Positions 43,970 to 63,422 of a stretch of 64,000 bases of DNA are shown piece by piece. The notes beneath the pieces are model-generated. The model was not told the DNA's origin and searched no databases. It was given only the letters and a program-made list of their open reading frames with translations. The DNA comes from Promethearchaeota archaeon (lineage in GTDB: Archaea; Asgardarchaeota; Lokiarchaeia; Sigyniarchaeales; SOKP01): positions 96,001-160,000 of the forward strand of contig JAUVXW010000001.1 of assembly GCA_030603385.1 (NCBI GenBank), in the 5' to 3' direction. Each line of letters begins with the position of its first letter. Position 1 is the first letter of the stretch. The translations under genes and the position numbers were made by a program.

Positions 43970-46765
43970 ATGAGTTTTTTTAAATTCTATGCTACAGGAA
44001 AGAAAAGAAGGCAAAAAAGACAATATATTAAGATAATAATCTGTGTTTTCTTTACTTTGATGTTTACCCTAAATTTTTTAAATCATTATGTTTATTCAGA
44101 TCAGACAAATGATCTTGATGAAGTCATTGATAGTAAAAATGAAAATCTATTCAATTTTGACCAAAATAATTTAGATATTGCTACGGATATATCGATGCTT
44201 CAAAATCCTTTTACTGAAAACTTTGATTTATTACGTATTTTTTTCGAATATAATTATAAATCCAGTTTAGACCTTGATATCTCACTCTATTTTAGAGAGG
44301 GAGATGAAAATGGAATAATTACAGATGATACTATTTATTCAGAAGATAATTTGTTTATGTATAATTCGTTAATGAATACGGAACTTGACCCAACTGAAAT
44401 TTTTGATATTTATTTAAAGTTGAAATCGACTCCTTTATGGTATGAAGATGATAATGAGCAATTTAATTACGGATTTGTAAAGTCAGTTGATAACTCTACA
44501 GGTCAAGTGAAGGATGATGATAGATATTTAATCGATAACTTGTTGCCAATTTTTTTACTAATTGAAAATATTGGTGAAGATATCGATGATATTTCTATCA
44601 ATGGTAAGTTTCCAAAAGATTCGATTGAAGAAATGTTTTTTCTTATAAATTCTACTGATTTTTGGGATGAAACCTATGATGGATTCGCTGTTTCTAATTC
44701 TAGTTTTGATAAACACTCTGAAAGCAACTTCTATGGAATTTTAGCAAATCTCCTAATTCATCAGACATATTATCATCAACTTAATTTAAAAAACGCTATA
44801 ACTGATAAAGCATACGATTTAGCAAATAAAACAATGTCTTCAATTGTAAATAATATGTGGGATGAAACGGCTAAAGCTTTCCGTTATCGTGCTAATTCTG
44901 CTTGGAATCCTTTTGTGGTTCCTGGGGGTACCCGTTACCATTTAGATGTGAATGCATTAGGAATCATAACTTTATTAGAATTTTGGGTTGGCTCTGGAAT
45001 GGAAAGTGATTTTTTAGAGAAAGCAGTTAACCTCTACAATAGCTTAGATGATCACCTATGGAATTTGACTGGTGATGATCTTTATTCTAATATTGCTGAA
45101 TCTAATTGGTTTCTATTTGATAGTAGCACCAACCTTAATTCAAACGCTCTAATGCTAGAAGCATGTATAAGATTGTTCCAACTTACAGGAAATATAACAT
45201 ATTACAATAGAGCTATTGAACTTTTCGACTCATTTGAAAAAAATTTATATGATAGCGTAAATAAAGCATACGATTTTTCCATATCAGATAGTAGTAAGAA
45301 TTTTAACACCAATCTAAAGCTATATGATGCTTATTTGAAAGCATCTGAAACTTATAGCAGTACGATATTAAGGGCAAATTATAATCTAACTGCTACAGTC
45401 CCTGATTTAGTTTTTAATCAAGACATTATGAATTTAACATCAGTTTATGCATTTGAGAATACGGAATATTATTACAATCTCTCAATTGATTCTTATGTTC
45501 CTTTTACTACAAGGCATAATATAACTGATGCAGACATAAATTATATTTTTAAATATCCAAATGGAACATTTTTGTATCAATTTGAAATTAATAGTCCGGC
45601 TGAATCACAAACTCTCAATTACATTATCGAAGAAACATTGCCAATGGGAGAAGGTTATTATATTTATATTTGGGGGAATAAAACATATTTCAAATTAGCT
45701 GACACTATTAAACGTTTCAACGTTAATTCTGGGCTAATAAATGAAACAATTGAGGGTTTAGTTAGTTTTTTATATCAAGGTCCGCTCTTAAATATAACAC
45801 TTCCTATCAATTATACTAGAAGAGATAATTTGACACTAACAGCATCTTTAGAGGGCAACGATATAATTAATTTCACCGCTCAGGAAGTCAATTTTACTGC
45901 AACTACTGAATTGGAAGAATTTACATATATTAATTTTAATCTTACTGCTAGACATGGAGCTATTCCTGGTCCTAGTGAAATTGTTTTCAAAATTACTAAA
46001 GGTAATATATTATATTTAGAAATTAAAAAAATAATAGAAATTGGGTATTCATTTGATTACGAATATTTATTATATCAAAGTAAGGTTGTTAGTGGTGAAA
46101 ATATTGATATTTTTCTAGATTTAATTAATTATTTACCAAACGCAACACAATCTTTGAATATTAGTTTTACTGGAAAAACAGAAAATTCAATTGAGACTTT
46201 GAATCAAGAAGTAACTTTAGATAAAAAGGAGATTAGATCAATTTCATTTAATCTGAAAACTCTTAAAAATATCGAAAATGATATAATTAGGATAGAAATG
46301 AATATACTTCAGAATACAACCATATATTATACTGAAGAATTGACTATAGAAATTATACCAAGATTTGAAATAATTAGCGTTTCATTTCCAGGAAAAATCT
46401 CTCAAGGAGCGCCCGCTTATTTTATTGCTACGATAAAGAATAACTTAGAGAATTCAGAAGCATTTTCTTTATACGTTAATGGAAAATTAGTGCAATCAAA
46501 TATCAACGAGCTCATCCCTGGTGAGAATAGGATTGAAAAAAAAATCATCCCTACACATAATCCATATGAATTTGGAACTAAGATTTATCGGGTAATCTTA
46601 GAGGATAGCGAAAATAAAGAAATTGCGAGATTCTATTTTAAAGTTGTTTTAGAGCTCTCAACCTTTAATTTAATAATTTTTTATATAGTACCTGTCATCA
46701 TCCCCATTGGTATTATGTTATACTTCTTAAATAAACAGATAAAACATAAAAAATTGAGAAGATGA
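43970..46765 (+). CDS. Large cell-surface protein: (alpha/alpha)6-barrel-like domain + Ig-like domains + C-terminal TM
   Basis: Basic N-terminus plus hydrophobic signal/anchor; repeated Y..DN / NAL...L..L..LTG...Y...A..L helical-hairpin motifs; many NxS/T sequons; C-terminal TM followed by KHKKLRR. Confidence 0.7.
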   Translation: MSFFKFYATGKKRRQKRQYIKIIICVFFTLMFTLNFLNHYVYSDQTNDLDEVIDSKNENLFNFDQNNLDIATDISMLQNPFTENFDLLRIFFEYNYKSSLDLDISLYFREGDENGIITDDTIYSEDNLFMYNSLMNTELDPTEIFDIYLKLKSTPLWYEDDNEQFNYGFVKSVDNSTGQVKDDDRYLIDNLLPIFLLIENIGEDIDDISINGKFPKDSIEEMFFLINSTDFWDETYDGFAVSNSSFDKHSESNFYGILANLLIHQTYYHQLNLKNAITDKAYDLANKTMSSIVNNMWDETAKAFRYRANSAWNPFVVPGGTRYHLDVNALGIITLLEFWVGSGMESDFLEKAVNLYNSLDDHLWNLTGDDLYSNIAESNWFLFDSSTNLNSNALMLEACIRLFQLTGNITYYNRAIELFDSFEKNLYDSVNKAYDFSISDSSKNFNTNLKLYDAYLKASETYSSTILRANYNLTATVPDLVFNQDIMNLTSVYAFENTEYYYNLSIDSYVPFTTRHNITDADINYIFKYPNGTFLYQFEINSPAESQTLNYIIEETLPMGEGYYIYIWGNKTYFKLADTIKRFNVNSGLINETIEGLVSFLYQGPLLNITLPINYTRRDNLTLTASLEGNDIINFTAQEVNFTATTELEEFTYINFNLTARHGAIPGPSEIVFKITKGNILYLEIKKIIEIGYSFDYEYLLYQSKVVSGENIDIFLDLINYLPNATQSLNISFTGKTENSIETLNQEVTLDKKEIRSISFNLKTLKNIENDIIRIEMNILQNTTIYYTEELTIEIIPRFEIISVSFPGKISQGAPAYFIATIKNNLENSEAFSLYVNGKLVQSNINELIPGENRIEKKIIPTHNPYEFGTKIYRVILEDSENKEIARFYFKVVLELSTFNLIIFYIVPVIIPIGIMLYFLNKQIKHKKLRR

Positions 46766-46771
46766 GAAATA

Positions 46772-48463
46772 TTGAGAAATAGAAAACAAATCAGTATTGC
46801 CTTAATTCTTTTTATTGTATTTAATACTTTTTTTGGTGTTATTTTAATTTCCTTTAAGGAATCTCCAATTTCAGATATAGATGACGGGGATAGAGAAAAA
46901 ATATTTTATAATCCAAAATTATCAAATGGTAAATGGGCTTTATCTTATAATGCAATAAATCGAAGTGCTGAAACCATTTATCGGTTATTTGAATCTATCA
47001 ATTTCACTATTGACACCTTTGGGAAAAATGATGTTGATCATGCGGTTATGCAAATAGATTTTTCTAATGGCTCTACCATTAATTACAATATGGAAAATTT
47101 TACAATTTATAAATATTCTTATGAGTATACACCAGAATACAACGCACCTTTAGGTTTTCAGAATGTAAGCTTTCTAATTTACAATATTACCGAGACACTT
47201 TTAAATACACATACAACTTATACTAATTTTACAATTCAGACTAACTACATGGCATTCACTAATAGTTCTGAATATTACGTTGGAGATGACTTATATGCAG
47301 AATTAATTGTTACAAATTGTTCAAGATGGAATCTTACAATCGTAGATAGCACAATTGAATCGGAACAGCGTAATATAACTAACTTTGAATATAACTCTAT
47401 TCAGTTTATTTATCGAATTAATAATGAAACTTTTTATAACTTTTTAGGTCAAACTTTTTATATTAAACTCAATATGACAGATACAGACTTTGGCATAAAA
47501 GGCGCAGCATATTATCCATTTAAAGTTTTAAATACAAATCCAATTATAGATAGTTCATCGATAACATTTTCTCCAGAAGAACTATACAGAAATGAAGATT
47601 GTGAGATTACTCTGAATGTGACAGATACTGAAGATCTCCCAGAAAATCTAGATGTAAGTATGTCTATCGAAGATCCTCAAGGAAATTTCCTTTCTACGAT
47701 CTCACTAGATCATGATACCAATATCACTTTTTCAGGGGAATTTTCTATTGCTGCTGGAAGACCAGTTGGAAAATACAGGATTGATATTACTGCAGAAGAT
47801 AAATTTGGTGGAATCGGCTCTTACTTAGTTTTTCTCACAGTAAAAAATAATCTACCCGAAATTCACAGCGTTAAGATTAACGGAAGATCAATGGTTCAAG
47901 GATTGTCGATATTATATGGTAAGAATTTAGTCTTTTCCTTTAATGTTTCGGATGTAGAAAGAGTTGCCTATATTAAAGTCGCTCTTATAGATGAAAATGG
48001 TGAATGGTATAATATAACCCGAGACTATAAAGGTATTGATACAGAAATAAATATCCGGACTATTGACTTAATAACTGGGGTCTGGTACGTGTATATTTAT
48101 GTTATTGATTCTGATGGAGCAATCACAACCCTTACAGACGATTTTGATGGGGCCCCCCCAGCAATAACGATTATTCCTGATGTATTAAGTGATTATTTAC
48201 CATGGATTATTTTCTTTTTAGGATTAATTATTGGGATGTTAATAAGTATTGGACTTGCTTACAGACATTTTAAATCAAAAGCGATTGGATCAAAAGTAGT
48301 AACTCCTACAAAGAAAGAGATATCATCAAAAAAACCATCAATCAAGAAAAAAGAAAAAGAGAAGCAAACTGAAGAATTAATAGAAGAGAAAGAGACAGAA
48401 GAAAAAACATCGGAAAAAGAAGAAGAGAGTGTTCCTAAACGTAAAATAAAAAGAAAATTATAA
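46772..48463 (+). CDS. Membrane-anchored surface protein with Ig-like repeats and charged cytoplasmic tail
   Basis: N-terminal signal; NTNP.I / NNLP.I...NVTD.E / NVSD.E...G.Y.I.I.A.D..GG repeats; TM near aa 478-498; K/E-rich tail. Confidence 0.75.
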   Translation: MRNRKQISIALILFIVFNTFFGVILISFKESPISDIDDGDREKIFYNPKLSNGKWALSYNAINRSAETIYRLFESINFTIDTFGKNDVDHAVMQIDFSNGSTINYNMENFTIYKYSYEYTPEYNAPLGFQNVSFLIYNITETLLNTHTTYTNFTIQTNYMAFTNSSEYYVGDDLYAELIVTNCSRWNLTIVDSTIESEQRNITNFEYNSIQFIYRINNETFYNFLGQTFYIKLNMTDTDFGIKGAAYYPFKVLNTNPIIDSSSITFSPEELYRNEDCEITLNVTDTEDLPENLDVSMSIEDPQGNFLSTISLDHDTNITFSGEFSIAAGRPVGKYRIDITAEDKFGGIGSYLVFLTVKNNLPEIHSVKINGRSMVQGLSILYGKNLVFSFNVSDVERVAYIKVALIDENGEWYNITRDYKGIDTEINIRTIDLITGVWYVYIYVIDSDGAITTLTDDFDGAPPAITIIPDVLSDYLPWIIFFLGLIIGMLISIGLAYRHFKSKAIGSKVVTPTKKEISSKKPSIKKKEKEKQTEELIEEKETEEKTSEKEEESVPKRKIKRKL

Positions 48464-54336: not shown

Positions 54337-55641
54337 ATGGTGAGTATTTCTTTTCTCGGAGGTTGTAGAGAAGTTGGACGAAGTGCTGTACTAGTGGAAT
54401 CTAAAAGCGGGATTAAGTGCATGTTGGATTATGGGATTCGATTCCGAGGAGAAGAGAGACTTCCCTATAGTACGAATATAGAAAATCTAAAAGCAATCGC
54501 TCTAACTCATAGCCATATTGATCATTCAGGGGGCTTACCTTTATTATATAAAACGAAAAAAGTTCCGTTCTTTACAAATTCCATTTCTCTTGCAATGACT
54601 GAAATTTTAATTAAAGATATGATAAAAATATCAAATTATCCTTATCCATTTGGATATAGAGAATTCGATTATTTAAAACAAAATTCATATTTCCTCAAAA
54701 ATGGAACAAGACAAAAGATTGCTGATAATTTCTTTATAACATTCATAAATGCAGGTCACATTCCTGGGAGTGTATCTATTTTACTTGAAGTAGATCATAA
54801 AACTATTTTGTATTCTGGTGATATTAACACACAGATTTCTAATTTAATACATTCTGCGAACTATATGGATATCCCTGAAATAGATACATTAATTATAGAA
54901 TCTACATATGCTCTTAGAAAGCATCCTCCAAGAGAGCAACTTGAGAAAGAATTTATAGAGAAAATAATGAATGTAATAGATAATGGTGGAACAGTCCTAA
55001 TTCCAGCTTTTGGTGTAGCTCGTTCACAAGAAGCTTTACTCATTTTGGAAAAATATGACTACAAAGGAAAAATCTTCATCGATGGGTTAGCAAGAAAAAT
55101 ATCTAAGTTATATTTAGATCATCCAGATTTTATCAAAAATATTAAATCATTCAGAAATGCATTGAATAAAGCACAATTTGTAACAAGACCTAAAACTAGG
55201 GCAAACATTAAAAAATCTAATGGAGTTATAATTTCTCCATCTGGTATGTTAAAAGGAGGTGCTGCAATAGAGTATATACAATCAATATTGGTAGATCCTT
55301 TATCAGCAATTTATTTAGTAGGTTACCAGGTGGAAGGAACACCCGGTAGAAATTTATTAGATGAGGGAATTTTTGAATTAAAAGAGTCTCGAAAAAATAA
55401 ACCTAATTTTGATTTAAGAATTGTAGCACAATGTGATTATGACTATTTTGACTTTTCAAGTCATTCTGATGGTATCCACATTCATGATTATATTGAAAAT
55501 CTGAATTTTAAAAGAAATGCCAACAGCGATATTTTCTGTATTCATGGAGATAATAAATCAACAACCAGCTTAGCTAGCGAATTGGTGAATAAAAATTATA
55601 ACTCAGTAGCTCCTGAAACAGGAGAGATTTACCAGGTTTAG
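54337..55641 (+). CDS. Beta-CASP metallo-beta-lactamase ribonuclease (aCPSF2-like, no KH domains)
   Basis: LGGCREVGRS, THSHIDH, AGHIPGS, YSGD, ESTY, PAF...RSQE, FSSH, IHGD. Confidence 0.88.
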   Translation: MVSISFLGGCREVGRSAVLVESKSGIKCMLDYGIRFRGEERLPYSTNIENLKAIALTHSHIDHSGGLPLLYKTKKVPFFTNSISLAMTEILIKDMIKISNYPYPFGYREFDYLKQNSYFLKNGTRQKIADNFFITFINAGHIPGSVSILLEVDHKTILYSGDINTQISNLIHSANYMDIPEIDTLIIESTYALRKHPPREQLEKEFIEKIMNVIDNGGTVLIPAFGVARSQEALLILEKYDYKGKIFIDGLARKISKLYLDHPDFIKNIKSFRNALNKAQFVTRPKTRANIKKSNGVIISPSGMLKGGAAIEYIQSILVDPLSAIYLVGYQVEGTPGRNLLDEGIFELKESRKNKPNFDLRIVAQCDYDYFDFSSHSDGIHIHDYIENLNFKRNANSDIFCIHGDNKSTTSLASELVNKNYNSVAPETGEIYQV

Positions 55642-55665: not shown

Positions 55666-57186
55666 CTATTTTTTTCGTAATTGATTTCGAATTGCAATAT
55701 TACAGTTTTCCAGAAATAATTCTACTTTTTCAATAGGGATCTTGGTTCCTGCCGCAGGAGGATGTCCCCCTCCTAATACATCTAAATTTGATTGTTTGCA
55801 TGCATCTCTAATCGCTTTTGAGAGATTTATGCCTTGATTTACAATGCTTTCATGTGCTCTTCCTGAAACTTTATATACGTCCTCATCAGTTCTTTTTGCT
55901 AAACCAAATATAGGTTTTGATTTATCTACACCTTTAATATGTTCGAAGATTAACATGGAAGTAATTGTTCCTATAATATTTTCGGGAATTACATCTTCTC
56001 CAAAAAAATATTGAATCGAATCTTTCTCTTGAATTTTATCATTCTCTTGAATCCAGGAAAGGCTCTCACCCAATGACTTTCTATAGTTTTTCAAAGCTTC
56101 CTTTGATTGTTGATAAATGTCCTTTCTATTTCCCATTGCAATAGCTATCCCTAACGAAGAATTATGAGTTCGGCCACAGGCATTTAGAAGATTAGAAAAT
56201 TCTTTAGCATCGTGAAGTTCTGAGCCAGCGGGTTCCTCTTTTAATATATACCGATTAATAATTAATTTTTTTATTATTTTATTAGGTTCTAAATCAAGTT
56301 TTATTGATGCATATTCAATAATAGCAGTAGATATGATTTGTTTCTCATCTTGGTTCAATTCACTCAACGTTTTTACATTACCTTCAGAATTTTCCATTAA
56401 TATTCCCTGAGTTTTCAAGAAAATCAAAGTTCTATTTGCATCTTTAGATAATCCGGGTAAAAGAATTTCTGTTGAATAAGCAATTGCTTCATTTAAGGGT
56501 TTTAAACTACGAAAATTTAAATCATTTACAACTTCGATTAACCCTAAATTCATCGCATCTTCTAAAATTAAAGTATTTAGTCCTAGAAAAGATTTGTTTA
56601 ATCCTTGATTTTGAATATCCCCTATTGCTCCAACGATAGCGATCGGTGATAAGTCTATATTTTCTTGATTCAGACATTTGGCAAAATAGTAGCATAATCC
56701 CGCACCTGAAATTTCAACACTACCATCAATTCCAAAAAAATAAGGGTTAATATGCCAATTTTTCGTTTTTTCATGGATTTGTTCAATCAATTTAACTTCT
56801 TCTTTGTTAGAAACATTTTGAGGAATGTGGTGATCTAAAATTAAAAAAGAATTAAACTTTGCTTTATTAACTAATTCTGTTTCTAATTCTAAATATTGTC
56901 CGCTACCAAAATCAGAAAAGATTAGAAAATTATTATATTCTTGAACTTTCTTTAAGATCTTCGCAATTTCTCTTTTTTCTAATTGTCTGAGTACAGTAAT
57001 TTGAAATGGGATTTTCTCTCGATATAAAGCTTTGCCAAGAATTGCACCCGAACTTAACCCATCAGCATCTAGATGGGTATAGATATTAATAGGAGTGTTC
57101 TTGCCTTCAACATGCTTAAATAAGTTATTCTTTGCAATCTTAAGATCGGCAAGCAATTTAGTTAATTTTTCTTTCTCTGTGTCCAT
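55666..57186 (-). CDS. RecJ/Cdc45-family DHH phosphoesterase (GAN-like)
   Basis: HLDADG, SDFG, LDHH, G..EISGAG, GAIGD.Q, EFSNLLNACGR, GGGHPPAAG. Confidence 0.9.
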   Translation of the reverse strand: MDTEKEKLTKLLADLKIAKNNLFKHVEGKNTPINIYTHLDADGLSSGAILGKALYREKIPFQITVLRQLEKREIAKILKKVQEYNNFLIFSDFGSGQYLELETELVNKAKFNSFLILDHHIPQNVSNKEEVKLIEQIHEKTKNWHINPYFFGIDGSVEISGAGLCYYFAKCLNQENIDLSPIAIVGAIGDIQNQGLNKSFLGLNTLILEDAMNLGLIEVVNDLNFRSLKPLNEAIAYSTEILLPGLSKDANRTLIFLKTQGILMENSEGNVKTLSELNQDEKQIISTAIIEYASIKLDLEPNKIIKKLIINRYILKEEPAGSELHDAKEFSNLLNACGRTHNSSLGIAIAMGNRKDIYQQSKEALKNYRKSLGESLSWIQENDKIQEKDSIQYFFGEDVIPENIIGTITSMLIFEHIKGVDKSKPIFGLAKRTDEDVYKVSGRAHESIVNQGINLSKAIRDACKQSNLDVLGGGHPPAAGTKIPIEKVELFLENCNIAIRNQLRKK

Positions 57187-57300
57187 TTTTCTGAATAATT
57201 AGATAATCATAAATTCAAAATTGAAACTATAATATAATAAGATATCAAAATTATAATAAATACTCAATTAAAAAAAGTAAATTTACTAAGGTGAAAATAA

Positions 57301-58296
57301 ATGCATCATATAAGAATAAATGAGCTTGCAAGAAACATTGTAGAGAAGATAATCAACAAGAAAGATTTATATAAAGCCAGTATAATTGAATTAGCTAATA
57401 ATTCTACTATTTTAGATATGACAAATGCTTCATGGAATGGGGGTAAATTGGTGGGAGAAATTTGTATGGGTGGTTTAGGAACTGTAGAATTTTCTCATTA
57501 TAATTTAGATGGGCATTTCATACCAAGTGTTACTGTTTATACTTCAGAACCATTAATTTCATGTATAGCTTCTCAATTGGCAGGTTGGAATGTGAAATTG
57601 AAGAAAGAAGTAGAAAAAAATGGACAAATGAAAAAAAAAGTCATTTTTCAGTCATTAGGTTCAGGACCAGCTCGAGCTAAAAGTAAAGTTGAAAAAATAT
57701 TTAATGAAATTGATTACATAGATAATTCTGATTGTGCAGTTATTGTTTTTGAGACCCCAAAATTACCAAATGAAGAAGTCATGAATATTGTTGCTGAAAA
57801 ATGTAGTGTTGATATAAGTAAAACTTATGCAGTTTGCGCGCCAACAGCTTGTTTAACAGGATCTATTCAAGTAGCAGCAAGAATTGTAGAAACAGGTGTT
57901 CACAAATTACATGAGATTAAATTTCCAATAGAATTAATCAGAAATGGCTATGGAACAACAACAATTGCTCCAATTGCGAAAGATGATCTAGGTGCAATGG
58001 GACGCACTAATGATTCCATAAGCGCAGGTGGAATGACATACTATACTATCGACGTTGAGAAAGAAAAAGAAGAAGAATTATTCGAACTTATTAAAAAGGG
58101 TCCAGCAAATACATCTTCTAGTTATGGAAAACCATTCATCGAAACATTTAAAGAGGCAAATTATAACTTTTATGATATTGATCCAGGATTATTTGCTCCA
58201 GCAACATACACTTTAACTAATATTAAAACAGGGAAAAGTTTAACTGTTGGAAAAGTAAATCATGAATTATTAAAACAATCTTATGGATTAGATTAG
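57301..58296 (+). CDS. mch: Methenyl-H4MPT cyclohydrolase
   Basis: EICMGGLG, SQLAGW, GSGPARA, APT....GSIQVAARIVETG.HK, AMGRTND, FYDIDPGLFAPA. Confidence 0.97.
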   Translation: MHHIRINELARNIVEKIINKKDLYKASIIELANNSTILDMTNASWNGGKLVGEICMGGLGTVEFSHYNLDGHFIPSVTVYTSEPLISCIASQLAGWNVKLKKEVEKNGQMKKKVIFQSLGSGPARAKSKVEKIFNEIDYIDNSDCAVIVFETPKLPNEEVMNIVAEKCSVDISKTYAVCAPTACLTGSIQVAARIVETGVHKLHEIKFPIELIRNGYGTTTIAPIAKDDLGAMGRTNDSISAGGMTYYTIDVEKEKEEELFELIKKGPANTSSSYGKPFIETFKEANYNFYDIDPGLFAPATYTLTNIKTGKSLTVGKVNHELLKQSYGLD

Positions 58297-58356
58297 TTGA
58301 AAAAATAAAAACTTTGTTCTAATATCATTAATTTTTTTATTTTATAAAAATAAAGC

Positions 58357-59490
58357 CTATATATTGGTGAGTTCTTCTTGATACTTTAAAATTTCATTTA
58401 CAGAAATATCCTTATCAAAGTTTATTTTTTTATGTATCCCTAAATATGCACACGCAAGATTAGCAGCAGCAGCAATTTCGGCTTTTTTAAGGGTTACAGA
58501 ATATTCATCCTGCTGATTTTGTTCTTCTTGGTAAGCATTTTCTTGATATCGATGATCTTGAATTTTAGTAGCTCTTTCATTTTTCATCTGGTATAATAAA
58601 GATGCCATTTTATCGGCTACTTTAAAAGGTAACTGGTTCTTAACAATTAAACGAATTATATTATTTACATCAAAATAATTCAAAGTTTCATATTTAGCAC
58701 GTAGAAAACTTTTAAGATTTTCAGAGTCTTTTTCACACTCAATTTCTGTCCAATCATGGATGGCTAGTTTTCTTCTAAAGTATATCAGCTCCCAATCAAT
58801 TTCCAGTTCTTTCAGAAATTCGAGTAATTTTATATCATTAGGTTTTCTTGATTCTATAATAATATAAAGTTGAAGACCATAATATTTATGCTCCTGTTGA
58901 AGGAAAAAGCCTCTTTGTTGCATAGATGCGAGAATCAATAACTTTATTGAAAAAACCTTATCGGAAACATTCTTTTTGCTACAGTTTAAGTAAATTACAT
59001 TTCCCTCTTCACTGATATATTCACAATCCAAAAACCCTAGAATACTCTCTTTATTTTCTTTTATAAATTTATTTAATCCAGTAAGAGTAGGTTTTACATC
59101 AAAACGCTTTAAATCATCTTGTCCAATAGTAACATAATCATTATAATTACTTCCAATAGCAAGTTTTATAGCATTTAATTTAAACTCTTTATCTATTCCA
59201 AATACTTTTTGAAAGGCTTCATTTATGGGAAACACTTCATCTTCGAGAATCTTAACATCTGCTATAGAACTCTCATATGGTTCAGGATCACTTAGCATCT
59301 TATTTAACACAGGCGCTTCTGAAGCCTCTACTTCAATTTCATATGATTTTGCTAAGTCTCTTCGAATAATGCAAACAGATCTCTTTTTTTTATTAAATAT
59401 TGAAAGCGAATTGTTATCATCAACCACCGCTCGAAATTTCTCAATGAATTTGTTTTCTGCGTTCTCTGAGCCTACTCTTCTTCTTCGAAT
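58357..59490 (-). CDS. Hypothetical protein
   Basis: 356-aa ORF from GTG 59427; the frame stays open to an ATT at 59490 (MRRRRVGSENAENKF...). No family recognised. Confidence 0.7.
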   Translation of the reverse strand: MRRRRVGSENAENKFIEKFRAVVDDNNSLSIFNKKKRSVCIIRRDLAKSYEIEVEASEAPVLNKMLSDPEPYESSIADVKILEDEVFPINEAFQKVFGIDKEFKLNAIKLAIGSNYNDYVTIGQDDLKRFDVKPTLTGLNKFIKENKESILGFLDCEYISEEGNVIYLNCSKKNVSDKVFSIKLLILASMQQRGFFLQQEHKYYGLQLYIIIESRKPNDIKLLEFLKELEIDWELIYFRRKLAIHDWTEIECEKDSENLKSFLRAKYETLNYFDVNNIIRLIVKNQLPFKVADKMASLLYQMKNERATKIQDHRYQENAYQEEQNQQDEYSVTLKKAEIAAAANLACAYLGIHKKINFDKDISVNEILKYQEELTNI

Positions 59491-59675
59491 TTTTAATCAA
59501 CTAATTATTTATGAAATTTATTCTTAGTTAATTTATTTATAAAATTTTTATCTTAAATTCTTAACTAAAAGAAATTATTAATCTTAGTTTTGTATTAAAT
59601 TAAAACTAAAACAGCCTTAAAACTAAATAATTTATAAATGGATACTAGAATTTTGTCAGAAAACTAATAATTATC

Positions 59676-59855
59676 TTATTCTAATTCCTCTTCTAAGAAA
59701 TAGTTGTCATCCTTCTTTATATAAACGGTCGTAGAACCAAAATTATTACGAACAGTATATTTATCTCCTTGAACATCTAATATTTCTATTGAATATGATA
59801 ATCTCCTTTTATTTAGGATATCTTCAACTATTTTTTTCTCTTCTTTAGAATCCAT
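59676..59855 (-). CDS. 59-aa hypothetical protein (not in ORF track)
   Basis: MDSKEEKKIVEDILNKRRLSYSIEILDVQGDKYTVRNNFGSTTVYIKKDDNYFLEEELE*; genome-typical composition with a helix + beta-strand pattern. Confidence 0.7.
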   Translation of the reverse strand: MDSKEEKKIVEDILNKRRLSYSIEILDVQGDKYTVRNNFGSTTVYIKKDDNYFLEEELE

Positions 59856-60021
59856 AACTAAGATTTATATTTCAAATCAAAAAAATTTTACTATTTTTAC
59901 CAACATTTCTGTAGTAAATTTAAAGATTGTAGACTCTTTTTCATGTATTATTGAGATCTTATATATACTTATTAGATCAGCAAGTATAAACTTAAAATAG
60001 AATTTCGATTGAATCAAAAAA

Positions 60022-60122
60022 GTGGAAATCTATTTCCTAAATGAAAAAATTGAGGTTTTAATAAAGGTTATTTTTTCATTAGGGGTAATTCCACGATTTT
60101 ATTAAAAATCGGGGTTTTTTTT
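60022..60122 (+). promoter_or_regulatory. Long hairpin overlapping a second hairpin + T-run upstream of the glycosyltransferase
   Basis: GTGGAA..CCTAAATGAAAAAAT pairs with ATTTTTTCATTAGG..TTCCAC; CCACGATTTT pairs with AAAATCGGGG; then T8. Confidence 0.4.
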
Positions 60123-60213
60123 AATAAACAGTTTAATAAATAAATGAGTATTTCATTAAAATATCTACATAGCAAAATTTTGCACATAATTGATCTCTCG
60201 TCTCTGAAGCATT

Positions 60214-61464
60214 ATGGTTCAACAGAAGCTTGACATTGGATTTTTCACTAGTATGTATAGTCAAACTAATGGTACAGCCCATGCTGTGCGATTCCTATCC
60301 GAGGCAGTCGCAAAACATACGGGTCATACAGTGCATGTTTATGCACCTGGAATTCAAAAACCGAAAAACATACCAAAAAATCTCTATCTTCATAATTTTT
60401 TTGGTGCAAAAATAGCACCTAAAACCGGGTTTGTTCTAAGTTTTCCTATCCATAAATACTTTTTCTGCCAACACGATTATTTAGACATTGCTCATATTCA
60501 TACACATGCAACATTTGGTAGTATGGCGATAAATTGGTCAAAATATATGGGGATCCCAATGGCCGGAACTCATAATTCCCCCCTTTCCTTTTATACCTCT
60601 CAATATATACCTATAGTGGGGGGTCTTTTGTCTAAAATGGATTGGATCTGGCGATATGAAAGACATATCTTAGATAAATATGATCTTGTATCAGTACCGA
60701 CAAAATCTAAGAAAGATTTGCTTAGGAAGCAGAGATTTAAAGAACCCATCGTCTGTCTTTCTAATGGGATTCATGATAGCTATTTCACTGATGTTAAGGA
60801 CAACGGAGTTCGGGATAAGTATAACTTAGATAATAAAAAGATTCTACTCTATGCTTCAAGACTTTCTCCTGAGAAGCATCAATTAAGTATTATTAAAATA
60901 TTTAAGAAAATTCATAAAGAGGTACCCAATTCACATTTAGTACTTGTAGGCAGCGACGGACCATCAACTTCACATGTTCTAAAACTTATTAAGAAGAAGA
61001 ATTATAAAGATTTTGTCTCTTATTTAGGTAGAGTCCCATTCAACGATTTATTGAAACTTTACAATATAGCTGATTTATCTTGCCTATGGTCTTGGATAGA
61101 AGCAGAAGGACTGGTACTTCTAGAAAGTATGGCTCAAGGAACACCGTGTATCGGCTCTAATAGTGTTGGAATTTCAGATGTAATAAGGCACGGGCAAACC
61201 GGATATTTAAGTCAGGATTTAAATGATTTTAAGGATAGAGTAATAAAACTATTCAAAGATGATGATCTTCGACTTGAGATGGGTAAAAATGCTAGAAAAG
61301 TTGCTGAAAATTATAGGATAAGCCATGTTGCAAAAACCTGGGTAAAATTATATAAATTTTTGATTAATGAGCTTTACCCACTTAGGTATTACAAAAAAGA
61401 ACGGAAAGAAAGGGTAAAGCTAGTGAAGGAGTTTATACACAACTTACCAATAGTTAGTTTTTAA
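60214..61464 (+). CDS. Glycosyltransferase family 4 (GT-B)
   Basis: FTSMY....NG, HIHT, T.HN, SNGI, RLSPEK, EAEGLVLLESMAQGTPCI. Confidence 0.9.
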   Translation: MVQQKLDIGFFTSMYSQTNGTAHAVRFLSEAVAKHTGHTVHVYAPGIQKPKNIPKNLYLHNFFGAKIAPKTGFVLSFPIHKYFFCQHDYLDIAHIHTHATFGSMAINWSKYMGIPMAGTHNSPLSFYTSQYIPIVGGLLSKMDWIWRYERHILDKYDLVSVPTKSKKDLLRKQRFKEPIVCLSNGIHDSYFTDVKDNGVRDKYNLDNKKILLYASRLSPEKHQLSIIKIFKKIHKEVPNSHLVLVGSDGPSTSHVLKLIKKKNYKDFVSYLGRVPFNDLLKLYNIADLSCLWSWIEAEGLVLLESMAQGTPCIGSNSVGISDVIRHGQTGYLSQDLNDFKDRVIKLFKDDDLRLEMGKNARKVAENYRISHVAKTWVKLYKFLINELYPLRYYKKERKERVKLVKEFIHNLPIVSF

Positions 61465-61477
61465 ATTGTGAGTTTTA

Positions 61478-62224
61478 TTAGAAATTGAAATCTTTTCTAA
61501 TTTTATATAGTTTTATTTTACAGATTTCACATAAATAATATGATTTCTTATCAATTTCATCAATATTTTTAGAAAACCTCATAACACAGGAATTTTCCTC
61601 ACAATGGGTAAACCCCATTAAAATATGTCCTATTTCATGAATTATTTCCTTAATAACTCTTTGTTCAAATAGTTCATTATCTTTTTGTCTATCATAAAAT
61701 TGCTCTTTCAGTTTAAGTGTAGATACTACACTACATCGATGTTTTAAGTGAGTCTCTCCAAATAAAAATAATATATTGTCGTCACTACTCGAATAAATAG
61801 GAAGATCTGTGAGGGCAATTATCATACCAAGTCTATCTTTCGTTCTTATATCTATTAATGATTGATAAAATTTATTAGTGGGGTGAATACTTAACTTATC
61901 ATTGATTCCTTTCATTTCTTTATACTCTTTTTTTACACCTTTAGAGAGAAGTTCTTTTGAAAAATTATATTGCCCTAAATTTATAATCTCAAAAAAGTAG
62001 GAATCAAAAATTTGATTCAAGTAAGATTCGATTTGTCTAAACAACTTAGCATCAAAATCGGCATAAAACAAAATTCCCAAATGACAAGGTAATATTAGTT
62101 TTTTCAACTCATCATCTACTAATTCAAATTCTTCGGAATAAGAAATTCCGATTCTTGTAACAAGTTTTTTTAATTTTTCCTTGTATTTGCGTATTTTCTG
62201 CTCATATTTTCGAAACTTAGGCAT
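61478..62224 (-). CDS. Archaemetzincin (peptidase M54)
   Basis: KEIIHEIGHILMGFTHCEENSCVMRFS......D.K...LCEIC (HExxHxxG..H, Met-turn, Cys4 site); LFLFGE. Confidence 0.9.
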   Translation of the reverse strand: MPKFRKYEQKIRKYKEKLKKLVTRIGISYSEEFELVDDELKKLILPCHLGILFYADFDAKLFRQIESYLNQIFDSYFFEIINLGQYNFSKELLSKGVKKEYKEMKGINDKLSIHPTNKFYQSLIDIRTKDRLGMIIALTDLPIYSSSDDNILFLFGETHLKHRCSVVSTLKLKEQFYDRQKDNELFEQRVIKEIIHEIGHILMGFTHCEENSCVMRFSKNIDEIDKKSYYLCEICKIKLYKIRKDFNF

Positions 62225-62372
62225 TATTTGTCAAATTAAAATTTTAAGATATCTAAAATAATCATTCTCTAAAAATAAAATTAGTTTAAATTCATTAATA
62301 ATAGGTATTTAAATCATTAATTATATTATAAAATAAAATATTTCAATTTGATTGAAAATTAAGCGCAGAATT

Positions 62373-63422
62373 ATGGTTGAAAATTCAAAAAATTCAGAAG
62401 ATATGGAACAAAGGGGCGAAGAAATCGAACAAATCTCAATAGGGAAAGATTCAGATAAGAGAATTGTTAATAAAGATTTTATACCTCACTATTTTCCAAC
62501 GTATAGGATTAAAAGAACGCTTTATCCGATCCCGATATTTATAGTCGTAATAATTGCGGGGATTTTAGCACATTTAACATATGTAGAAGCTGGAGTTCAA
62601 ATAGATGGAGGATATATTTCGGAAAGTGAATATGGAGCAATTGGGGGGATAATTAATGGACTTATATATACGGGGCTAGCTGGTTTCTCGGCTTTTATTA
62701 TCATTTATATTATTAAAAAAAGAGGTGTAGGCGCTTTAATGTATATTTTTGGGATAGGATTTGGTATGGTAACCTTTTTTCAAACATGGTTCTTTGGGGA
62801 GGTAATATTATATTTATCATTTTCCAATAATCCTAGATTATACTATTTACTTGATGTTGAATTAATCTTTCTTACAGCTGTATTTACTATATTTATGATT
62901 TATAAATATTTTACTTCAAAATCAATTAAGATAAAAAATTTCATTGTGTTGTATATAGGATTACTAATTGGAGCGTCTATGGGTGTTTTAATGCCTCTTT
63001 GGACCACTCTAGCTATATTAATAGGAATTTCTTTATGGGATATGTTTGCTGTTTTGTATAAACATGGTCCTATTAAGCAATTAATTGATTTAGTTTCAGA
63101 ACCTAATGATAGTATCACCAATACTTCAGAAACAGATTTAAAAGAAAAAATACAGAGCGGAGAATATACATATGATACTTCCAAATTGGAAATCGGAATT
63201 GGTGATCTAGCATTTTATAGTATGCTTACTTCTAGTGCTCTTGTTCAAACAAATAATGTAATAATCATGATTTTAACCTCAATAGCTATAATTATTGGAA
63301 CAGGAATTACAATACTGGGTCTTAAAAGAAATAAAATTTTACCTGGTCTACCTATCTCAATTTTTCTAGGAATAGGGACAATGCTGTTCTCATGGTATAT
63401 TTTTTCATTCATATTTGTTTAA
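62373..63422 (+). CDS. Presenilin-family intramembrane aspartyl protease (A22)
   Basis: About 9 TMs; MPLWT...L..ISLWDMFAVL...GPIKQL (TM6 Asp), EIGIGDLAFYSML (GxGD), LPGLPISI (PAL variant). Confidence 0.9.
   Translation: MVENSKNSEDMEQRGEEIEQISIGKDSDKRIVNKDFIPHYFPTYRIKRTLYPIPIFIVVIIAGILAHLTYVEAGVQIDGGYISESEYGAIGGIINGLIYTGLAGFSAFIIIYIIKKRGVGALMYIFGIGFGMVTFFQTWFFGEVILYLSFSNNPRLYYLLDVELIFLTAVFTIFMIYKYFTSKSIKIKNFIVLYIGLLIGASMGVLMPLWTTLAILIGISLWDMFAVLYKHGPIKQLIDLVSEPNDSITNTSETDLKEKIQSGEYTYDTSKLEIGIGDLAFYSMLTSSALVQTNNVIIMILTSIAIIIGTGITILGLKRNKILPGLPISIFLGIGTMLFSWYIFSFIFV

Follow-up and report, generated by a model that had tools for sequence, protein, structure and literature searches.

An archaemetzincin paralogue paired head to head with a stand-alone presenilin in an Asgard archaeon, and the archaeal gene cluster to which the pair belongs

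We analysed a stretch of 64,000 nt from a Promethearchaeota archaeon (JAUVXW010000001.1, positions 96,001-160,000; the window, as we call the whole of it) and focused on the genes at 60214-63422, where an M54 archaemetzincin paralogue and a presenilin (PSH) are divergently oriented. The M54 gene (61478-62224, minus strand) encodes 248 amino acids and matches PF07998 at 78.4 bits (cut-off 24.4). The A22A-type presenilin lies on the plus strand, ends at 63422, and has 356 amino acids when read from a TTG at 62352 or 349 when read from an ATG at 62373; it matches PF01080 at 85.9 bits (cut-off 34.3). The gap between the two genes is 127 nt to the TTG and 148 nt to the ATG, in agreement with an earlier note on this DNA, which had put it at about 150 nt. 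On its other side, M54 is followed by a GT4 glycosyltransferase of 416 amino acids (60214-61464, plus strand; PF00534 at 1e-35, plus PF13439). The list of open reading frames (ORFs) and the Pfam matches bear out the three genes as that note had described them. Comparison with other genomes showed that in the M54-PSH pair there survives, at this locus, part of an ancient cluster of archaea formed by an aCPSF2-like beta-CASP RNase, an archaemetzincin and a presenilin. The third conserved member, the RNase, was missed by the earlier note.

A profile search of the window's genome returned two M54 genes and one presenilin. One of the M54 genes lies on contig 27, away from PSH, and has a canonical motif (HELGHTFRLKHC). 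The zinc motif of the copy linked to PSH is HEIGHILMGFTHC, which has one residue more than HEXXHXXGXXHC, between the second His and the Gly. It reads HEIGH-ILM-G-FT-HC-EENS-C-V-M...C-EI-C and departs from the extended archaemetzincin consensus HEXXHXXGXXHCX4CXMX17CXXC (PMC3427221). The one-residue insertion is common to all linked copies of the window's own family (labelled f1). In the linked copy of the sister family f3, two residues are added and the Gly is missing; in some f1 copies the Gly is replaced by D or S. The catalytic Glu, the three His and the four Cys are kept in every linked copy, and the Cys4 site is intact. Against NF033823 of NCBIfam, the linked M54 scores 113 bits, below the cut-off of 145, and to judge from its sequence it is a divergent member of the archaemetzincin family.

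The linked M54 also has about 60 extra N-terminal residues, consisting of a conserved basic helix plus a linker, and an insertion in the N-domain. The AlphaFold2 model (predicted local distance difference test score, pLDDT, of 87.3) folds residues 2-24 into a helix (pLDDT ~65), which a disordered linker joins to the catalytic core; this helix (MPKFQKYEQKIRKYKEKLKKL…RIGIS) is conserved and rich in Lys and Arg. The top Foldseek matches of this model were 2X7M, 3LMC and 3ZVS (E 5e-13 to 1e-11; TM-scores 0.67-0.76, normalised to target length) and its core superposes best on AmzA structures, while ADAM and adamalysin catalytic domains are distant structural matches (ranks 6-50). With the AmzA-type enzymes (Methanopyrus kandleri 2X7M, Archaeoglobus fulgidus 3ZVS/4AXQ, Methanocorpusculum labreanum 3LMC), AMZ-tk and human AMZ1/AMZ2, it shares PF07998, the HExxH motif, the third His and the Cys4 zinc-ribbon signature; the N-terminal helix plus linker and the two insertions, in the N-domain and in the zinc motif, set it apart from the AmzA type. 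No hydrophobic segment was detected in the linked M54 (maximum 19-residue Kyte-Doolittle mean 1.17). Because it has neither a signal peptide nor a transmembrane (TM) segment, we class it as a predicted cytoplasmic protein, as the earlier note had done. Among the canonical linked copies of 170-210 amino acids, no signal peptide or TM segment was evident in the alignment, a comparison that did not include a hydropathy scan of those copies.

Pairwise ratios of non-synonymous to synonymous substitution rates (dN/dS) among 12 congeners were 0.13-0.27 for M54 and about 0.09-0.15 for PSH: purifying selection acts on both genes, on M54 a little less strongly. The low dN/dS, the kept Glu, His and Cys residues and the confident AmzA-like model point to a working gene with predicted catalysis. 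In the trees, the f1 and f3 linked copies group together as a single clade on a long stem (Shimodaira-Hasegawa-like approximate likelihood ratio test, 99), and the linked M54 is a fast-evolving paralogue. Two quick-mode trees, in which deep nodes are without resolution, place this clade differently, as sister to the canonical f1 copies or to the linked copies of family f4. Separately, natural M54 fusions exist in other organisms: P0001 (672 amino acids) has a MatE multi-TM transporter domain (PF01554), and in P0002 (637 amino acids) M54 is fused to a sigma-54 response-regulator module (PF00072, PF00158, PF02954), i.e. M54 is tethered to a membrane protein in one and to a signalling protein in the other.

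The PF01080 match of the presenilin falls in two stretches. The catalytic aspartates are D230 (LWD) and D285 (GIGD), and a PGL is found at position 331 in place of PAL. The Asp, GxGD and PGLP columns do not vary among 13 diverse archaeal homologues, the variants relative to the canonical motifs being W for Y and G for A. A hydropathy scan gave eight segments that are clearly hydrophobic; a ninth would be the one with GIGD, which is only weakly so. Human presenilin-1 is the best PDB sequence match (6e-12); no archaeal PSH chain was found in PDB at E ≤ 1 with the window PSH as query. Like presenilin-1/2, the catalytic subunit of gamma-secretase, the window PSH has PF01080, a putative set of about nine TM segments, the TM6 Asp, the TM7 GxGD and a PAL-type PGL. 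Unlike them, it has WD and not YD as TM6 motif, and its gene partner is a cytoplasmic zinc peptidase and not a membrane-bound sheddase. Matches to Nicastrin, APH-1 and PEN-2 of gamma-secretase (PF05450, PF06105, PF10251) were not found in the genome, which is 94% complete, by a search that had no positive control and is of unproven sensitivity. PSH is a stand-alone presenilin. The archaeal PSH MCMJR1 of Methanoculleus marisnigri is a stand-alone GxGD protease too, and needs no partner subunits according to the passage of PMC7997004 that cites Kuo et al. 2015. Both are thus of the stand-alone archaeal GxGD type, MCMJR1 being PF06550-type and the window PSH matching PF01080 only. For nearly all listed Bathyarchaeia homologues, PF06550 is recorded together with PF01080.

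The TM6-TM7 loop of the family's PSH is about 46 amino acids long, is well conserved and ends in the YDTSKLEIGIGD motif. In the f1 members that lost M54, no visible change was found in PSH length, loop or motifs. The PSH tree agrees with taxonomy (support of 96 for f1+f3+f4, 89 for Helarchaeota and 100 for Bathyarchaeia), so the linkage looks old and vertically kept, not spread by recent transfer. Two further features of this protein were noted: a strictly conserved G-E-Y-x-YDTSKLEI at residues 270-285, directly before GIGD, closes the TM6-TM7 loop, and two residues are inserted after the TM6 Asp (AVLYKHGP, vs AV--KKGP of other archaeal presenilins).

The region between the two genes holds a conserved core of 32 nt (62301-62332). 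It is found with at most six mismatches in 19 of the 20 relatives' loci with the pair in the genus (labelled g1), weaker matches exist in other f1 genera, and the window has a single copy of it. The core holds two TATA-like boxes about 18 nt apart (TATTTAAA, 62306-62313; TATTATAAAA, 62324-62333), which are putative back-to-back divergent core promoters. The spacing to these boxes favours the ATG at 62373 as the start of PSH, which is also likelier because orthologues align from residue 8 onward. A search for structured RNA returned no Rfam family matching this intergenic region.

We searched 400 whole genomes of the phylum with profiles to locate PSH and M54, and took 80 neighbourhoods, whose ORFs were scored with iterated profiles; the counts that follow come from samples and are no census, and genomes that are related do not count as independent. 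Within g1, the whole block GT4-M54-PSH-HCDH is syntenic. Synteny within a genus says little by itself, and it is the deeper sampling that is decisive. The divergent pair is present at 32 of the 40 PSH loci of f1, the other eight having lost M54, which leaves GT4 beside PSH. The pair is divergent, 78 nt apart and without GT4 in f3, and divergent in three genomes of f4, where M54 has an inserted S15 X-Pro dipeptidyl-peptidase gene next to it. Both examined genomes of the Helarchaeota family Hel_GB_A (f5) have a divergent pair, 91 nt apart in one and with overlapping ORFs in the other. A second Helarchaeota family (f7) has the pair in one genome of two. The pair was also found in all three genomes of f26, one of them interrupted by a TnpB-like gene, and in both genomes of f33, where M54→PSH is co-directional and overlapping. 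The linked M54 of f5, f7, f26 and f33 is of the canonical kind, and these genomes have no other M54. M54 and PSH are unlinked in Hel_GB_B, Hermodarchaeia, Borrarchaeia, Jordarchaeia and several other families examined. The synteny of M54 and A22 across Asgard archaea, which the earlier note had proposed to check, thus extends beyond close relatives, with the pair recurring in several Asgard families and in Bathyarchaeia.

Some of these loci carry further genes. The S15 gene of f4 encodes ~790 amino acids (PF02129 plus PF08530) and lies between PSH and M54 on the M54 strand (L035:2790-5153, L036:8819-11197, L107:3547-5931), a third peptidase thus recruited to the same spot. TnpB/Cas12f-like genes (PF07282) sit inside the cluster at L049:1582-2484 (f26) and L157:2470-3642 (Bathyarchaeia), and the insertion in f26 separates M54 from PSH by 1.4 kb. 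For f33, we considered co-transfer of the pair, given a Bathyarchaeia-like gene order and best M54 hits in Bathyarchaeia, and found no support for it: f33 falls within Bathyarchaeia in neither the PSH tree nor the M54 tree.

Outside Asgard archaea, a scan with the M54 alignment (one genome per GTDB species) gave matches mostly in Bathyarchaeia and bacteria. At 21 of the 31 M54 loci of Bathyarchaeia, a presenilin of 272-313 amino acids with GLGD lies directly downstream on the same strand, and M54 is adjacent at 29 of 35 PSH loci there; none of the bacterial M54 genes of the scan has a presenilin directly downstream. The gene order in Bathyarchaeia is archaeosine-TGT-like, PHP, beta-CASP RNase (~420 amino acids; Beta-Casp plus RMMBL), M54 and PSH, in which β-CASP RNase→M54→PSH make up a tight co-directional operon with gaps of 0-30 nt. 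The same type of RNase flanks M54 in f5, f7 and f26, and stands directly upstream of PSH, M54 being gone, in Hel_GB_B, Helarchaeota LW55_61 and Hermodarchaeia. In the window, a beta-CASP metallo-beta-lactamase RNase of 434 amino acids, aCPSF2-like and without KH domains, is encoded at 54337-55641 on the plus strand. It matches at 2e-146 a profile made from the beta-CASP genes that adjoin M54 in Helarchaeota, f26 and Bathyarchaeia; its best PDB sequence matches are the catalytic cores of archaeal CPSF/FttA and CPSF-73, and its homologues have Beta-Casp and RMMBL. The window order, beta-CASP(+)…M54(-) PSH(+), is the orientation of the Helarchaeota loci L074 and L075, but with 5.8 kb inserted. 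The cluster exists in several forms: a co-directional operon in Bathyarchaeia, a version with M54 inverted in Helarchaeota and another Asgard family, and one stretched by inserts in f1.

Similar neighbours emerged from a PSH-centred scan of 80 species-level loci from the GTDB genome collection. M54 lies less than 600 nt from PSH at 45 of these loci and at 0.6-5 kb at four, and PSH stands alone at 12, including all sampled Borrarchaeia and Thermoplasmata. When the ORFs within ±5 kb of PSH were clustered (22 loci, 17 lineages), beta-CASP (9 lineages) and M54 (8) were the top neighbours, followed by PAC2 and a tRNA_bind/CsaA-like protein in 5 lineages each. The PAC2 proteasome-assembly-chaperone-family gene (PF09754) and the small tRNA_bind/CsaA-like gene (PF01588) are found just beyond the RNase in Helarchaeota, Hermodarchaeia and f26 (L048:11456-12172, L037:10348-11094, L051:5296-5637, L037:12334-12684), extending the surroundings of the cluster towards proteostasis genes.

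Pfam and NCBIfam assignments together with synteny delimit a lineage-specific insert at 55666-61464, in which four genes (5.8 kb) part the RNase from M54 in the window: a RecJ-like nuclease (55666-57186, minus strand), Mch (57301-58296, plus strand), an orphan protein of 356 amino acids (58357-59427, minus strand; without Pfam or NCBIfam match) and GT4. As a block, they are syntenic within f1 only; Mch and the orphan protein are also near PSH in f3 and f4. The glycosyltransferase had been described as abutting the metzincin, and the distance of 13 nt stands. The two genes are convergent, however, stop to stop, and therefore do not form one transcription unit, and GT4 adjoins M54 in f1 only. 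We accordingly rejected GT4 as a member of the module: with the other genes of the insert, it is a lineage-specific insertion into an old cluster. A GT4 gene beside PSH in Borrarchaeia is merely a distant family member (5e-21) and lends the glycosyltransferase no support. As a separate observation, the orphan protein is kept near PSH and Mch in f1, f3 and f4, three families of one order (phmmer E 1e-81 to 1e-167). Metatranscriptome contigs from four runs, at 90-99% identity, cover GT4, the orphan gene, Mch, RecJ and HCDH.

M54 and PSH are thus a conserved and probably co-regulated pair, and we propose that M54 is a facultative cytoplasmic partner peptidase of the stand-alone presenilin; whether the two are directly coupled in function is, in our judgement, an even call. 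PSH, as a stand-alone intramembrane aspartyl protease, would cut transmembrane segments, and M54 on the cytoplasmic face would trim or degrade the fragments that PSH releases, or the cytoplasmic tails of PSH substrates, being helpful to PSH but dispensable. The linked M54 of f1 would be specialised for this task through its basic N-terminal helix, possibly used for membrane or partner docking, and its remodelled zinc-site loop, and the second, canonical M54 elsewhere in the genome would keep the general function. An accessory role is in keeping with four observations: archaemetzincins are soluble and have an adaptable groove, the gene inserted in f4 is a peptidase, M54 has been lost with no change in PSH, and there are families with PSH only. 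In the literature, archaemetzincin is a soluble single-domain enzyme whose natural substrate is not known (PMC3427221), and the characterised members of the family are described as proteases whose substrate-binding site is mouldable and whose biological role is not known (PMC3427221, PMC4681839).

Several observations weigh against this proposal. The coupling of M54 and PSH is deduced from gene order. With the zinc-motif insertion and the loss of the Gly in some orthologues, the activity of the paralogue is a prediction. No M54-PSH fusion was seen among the listed matches to Bathyarchaeia queries (three longer M54 proteins and 120 near-length PSH), which is weak evidence, and no contig of the four metatranscriptome runs fell on 61682-63351 (M54, PSH), a missing cover that proves nothing. 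The link to the RNase is at least as tight as that to M54, with beta-CASP directly adjoining PSH in the absence of M54 at 19 of the 80 loci of the PSH-centred scan. The cluster is functionally mixed, with its archaeosine-TGT-like and PHP genes, and could reflect shared expression only. The two proteases do not always travel together. In f2, a sister family of the same order, PSH is present in 13 of 14 genomes and M54 in none; in f18 all 12 genomes have PSH and one has M54; in f20 M54 is present and PSH absent; and the repeated losses of the linked M54 have left no visible trace in PSH. Given f2 and the eight f1 loci that lost M54, the coupling is not obligatory and M54 is dispensable. The coupled proteolytic module put forward in the earlier note holds as a conserved pair, probably co-regulated, and fails as an obligatory one.

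In the main rival explanation, beta-CASP, M54 and PSH are housekeeping genes that stay clustered so as to be expressed together, as in ribosomal super-operons, and M54 and PSH act on unrelated substrates with no direct biochemical link. We regard this as possible, if on the doubtful side. The mixed content of the Bathyarchaeia cluster (ArcTGT-like, PHP, beta-CASP, M54, PSH) fits it, as do the PAC2 and tRNA_bind/CsaA-like genes beside the RNase in Helarchaeota, Hermodarchaeia and f26. Moreover, all three pairwise adjacencies are found without the third gene, and M54 and PSH each occur without the other in whole families. Yet the M54-PSH adjacency outlasts the inversion of M54 and the rearrangement of all other neighbours (f1, f3, f33), the f1 pair stayed together despite the four-gene insertion that separated the RNase, and the gene that came to lie between the pair in f4 is another peptidase. 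Pure inertia is harder still to credit. The syntenic GT4-M54-PSH-HCDH block would be expected of neutral leftover synteny without selective meaning, and conservation there indeed proves nothing, but the adjacency of M54 and PSH is kept across classes and two phyla with no other flanking gene in common, and we estimate that two given genes would be adjacent by chance in about 6 of 10,000 cases (for a genome of ~3500 genes). We consider this reading hardly credible.

Two other explanations also assume that the proteases work together, and differ from a facultative partnership in what M54 would cut. In animals, shedding by an ADAM metzincin precedes presenilin cleavage of Notch and APP, and the earlier note had drawn the analogy to this locus: M54 would act as site-1 sheddase on the extracellular part of a type-I membrane protein, and PSH would then cut the stub, in an archaeal form of regulated intramembrane proteolysis. 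The adjacency of both protease classes, the conservation of the pairing, the metzincin fold and the distant structural matches to ADAM and adamalysin all agree with such a two-step scheme. A sheddase must be exported, however, which makes the scheme very unlikely: M54 has no signal peptide or TM segment, its N-terminal helix is Lys/Arg-rich instead, and the closest AmzA structures are chains of 158-191 residues. A cytoplasmic M54 cannot shed ectodomains, and the analogy fails. In addition, PSH persists in f2 and f18 where M54 is absent or nearly so, and the uncontrolled search described above detected no Nicastrin, APH-1 or PEN-2 in this genome. Alternatively, M54 could act on PSH itself, cutting its cytoplasmic TM6-TM7 loop in a 'presenilinase'-like maturation or controlling its turnover, for which a cytoplasmic M54, tight gene linkage and a long (~46 amino acids), conserved loop would be well suited. 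But f1 members that lost M54 do not differ in PSH sequence or in the length and motif of the loop, the loop is much shorter in Bathyarchaeia, where linkage is tightest, and f2 is altogether without M54; we find this idea improbable.

A broader version of the facultative partnership would include the RNase. The RNase-M54-PSH triad could be one ancient archaeal pathway, predating the split of Asgard and TACK archaea, for rescue or quality control of membrane proteins, in which the presenilin would cut a failed or surplus membrane protein within the membrane, the archaemetzincin would digest its cytoplasmic remains and the RNase would remove the message. We hold this to be unlikely. If true, presenilin would have had the archaemetzincin as its first physiological partner; both families are present in eukaryotes, as AMZ1/2 and PSEN.

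Compared with ADAM10/17 followed by gamma-secretase on Notch and APP, the likeness of the window's pair is that a zinc protease of metzincin fold is paired with a presenilin. It differs in that the zinc protease is cytoplasmic, small and dispensable and the pairing is genomic only, that no ectodomain-measuring nicastrin was found, and that the third conserved member is a beta-CASP RNase. This eukaryote-type presenilin, from the closest archaeal relatives of eukaryotes, has a context unlike that of gamma-secretase: it is stand-alone, beside a cytoplasmic peptidase and an RNA-degrading enzyme, with no sheddase or nicastrin found. We know of no natural substrate of archaemetzincins, human AMZ1/AMZ2 included, nor, to our knowledge, do archaeal presenilins have a known physiological role; linkage across two archaeal phyla gives both protease families a concrete, testable partner. 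A specialised M54 with an altered zinc motif, lost repeatedly, also amounts to a natural experiment on the dispensability of a partner. Asgard presenilin homologues have been noted before (PMC7997004), and our literature search found no paper linking presenilin to archaemetzincin or to beta-CASP RNases. New here are two features of the linked M54, its variant zinc motif and its N-terminal helix, as well as its repeated loss, the insert in the cluster and the conserved core of putative promoters.

The proteins encoded at 43970-48463 had been suggested as substrates of both enzymes, and nothing links them to the pair: the two ORFs (931 and 563 amino acids) have no Pfam match above threshold, the sole match being a weak MG2-domain in the second (22.9 bits). 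Finally, some metagenome-assembled genome records titled Deferrimicrobium, Krumholzibacteriaceae, Bathyarchaeota Bin_245 and Nanopelagicaceae (L198, L224, L260, L264) carry PSH clusters of Asgard or Bathyarchaeia type. L198 and L260 are the same contigs as those of the Asgard genomes G164 and G031, and these records are probably mislabelled bins.

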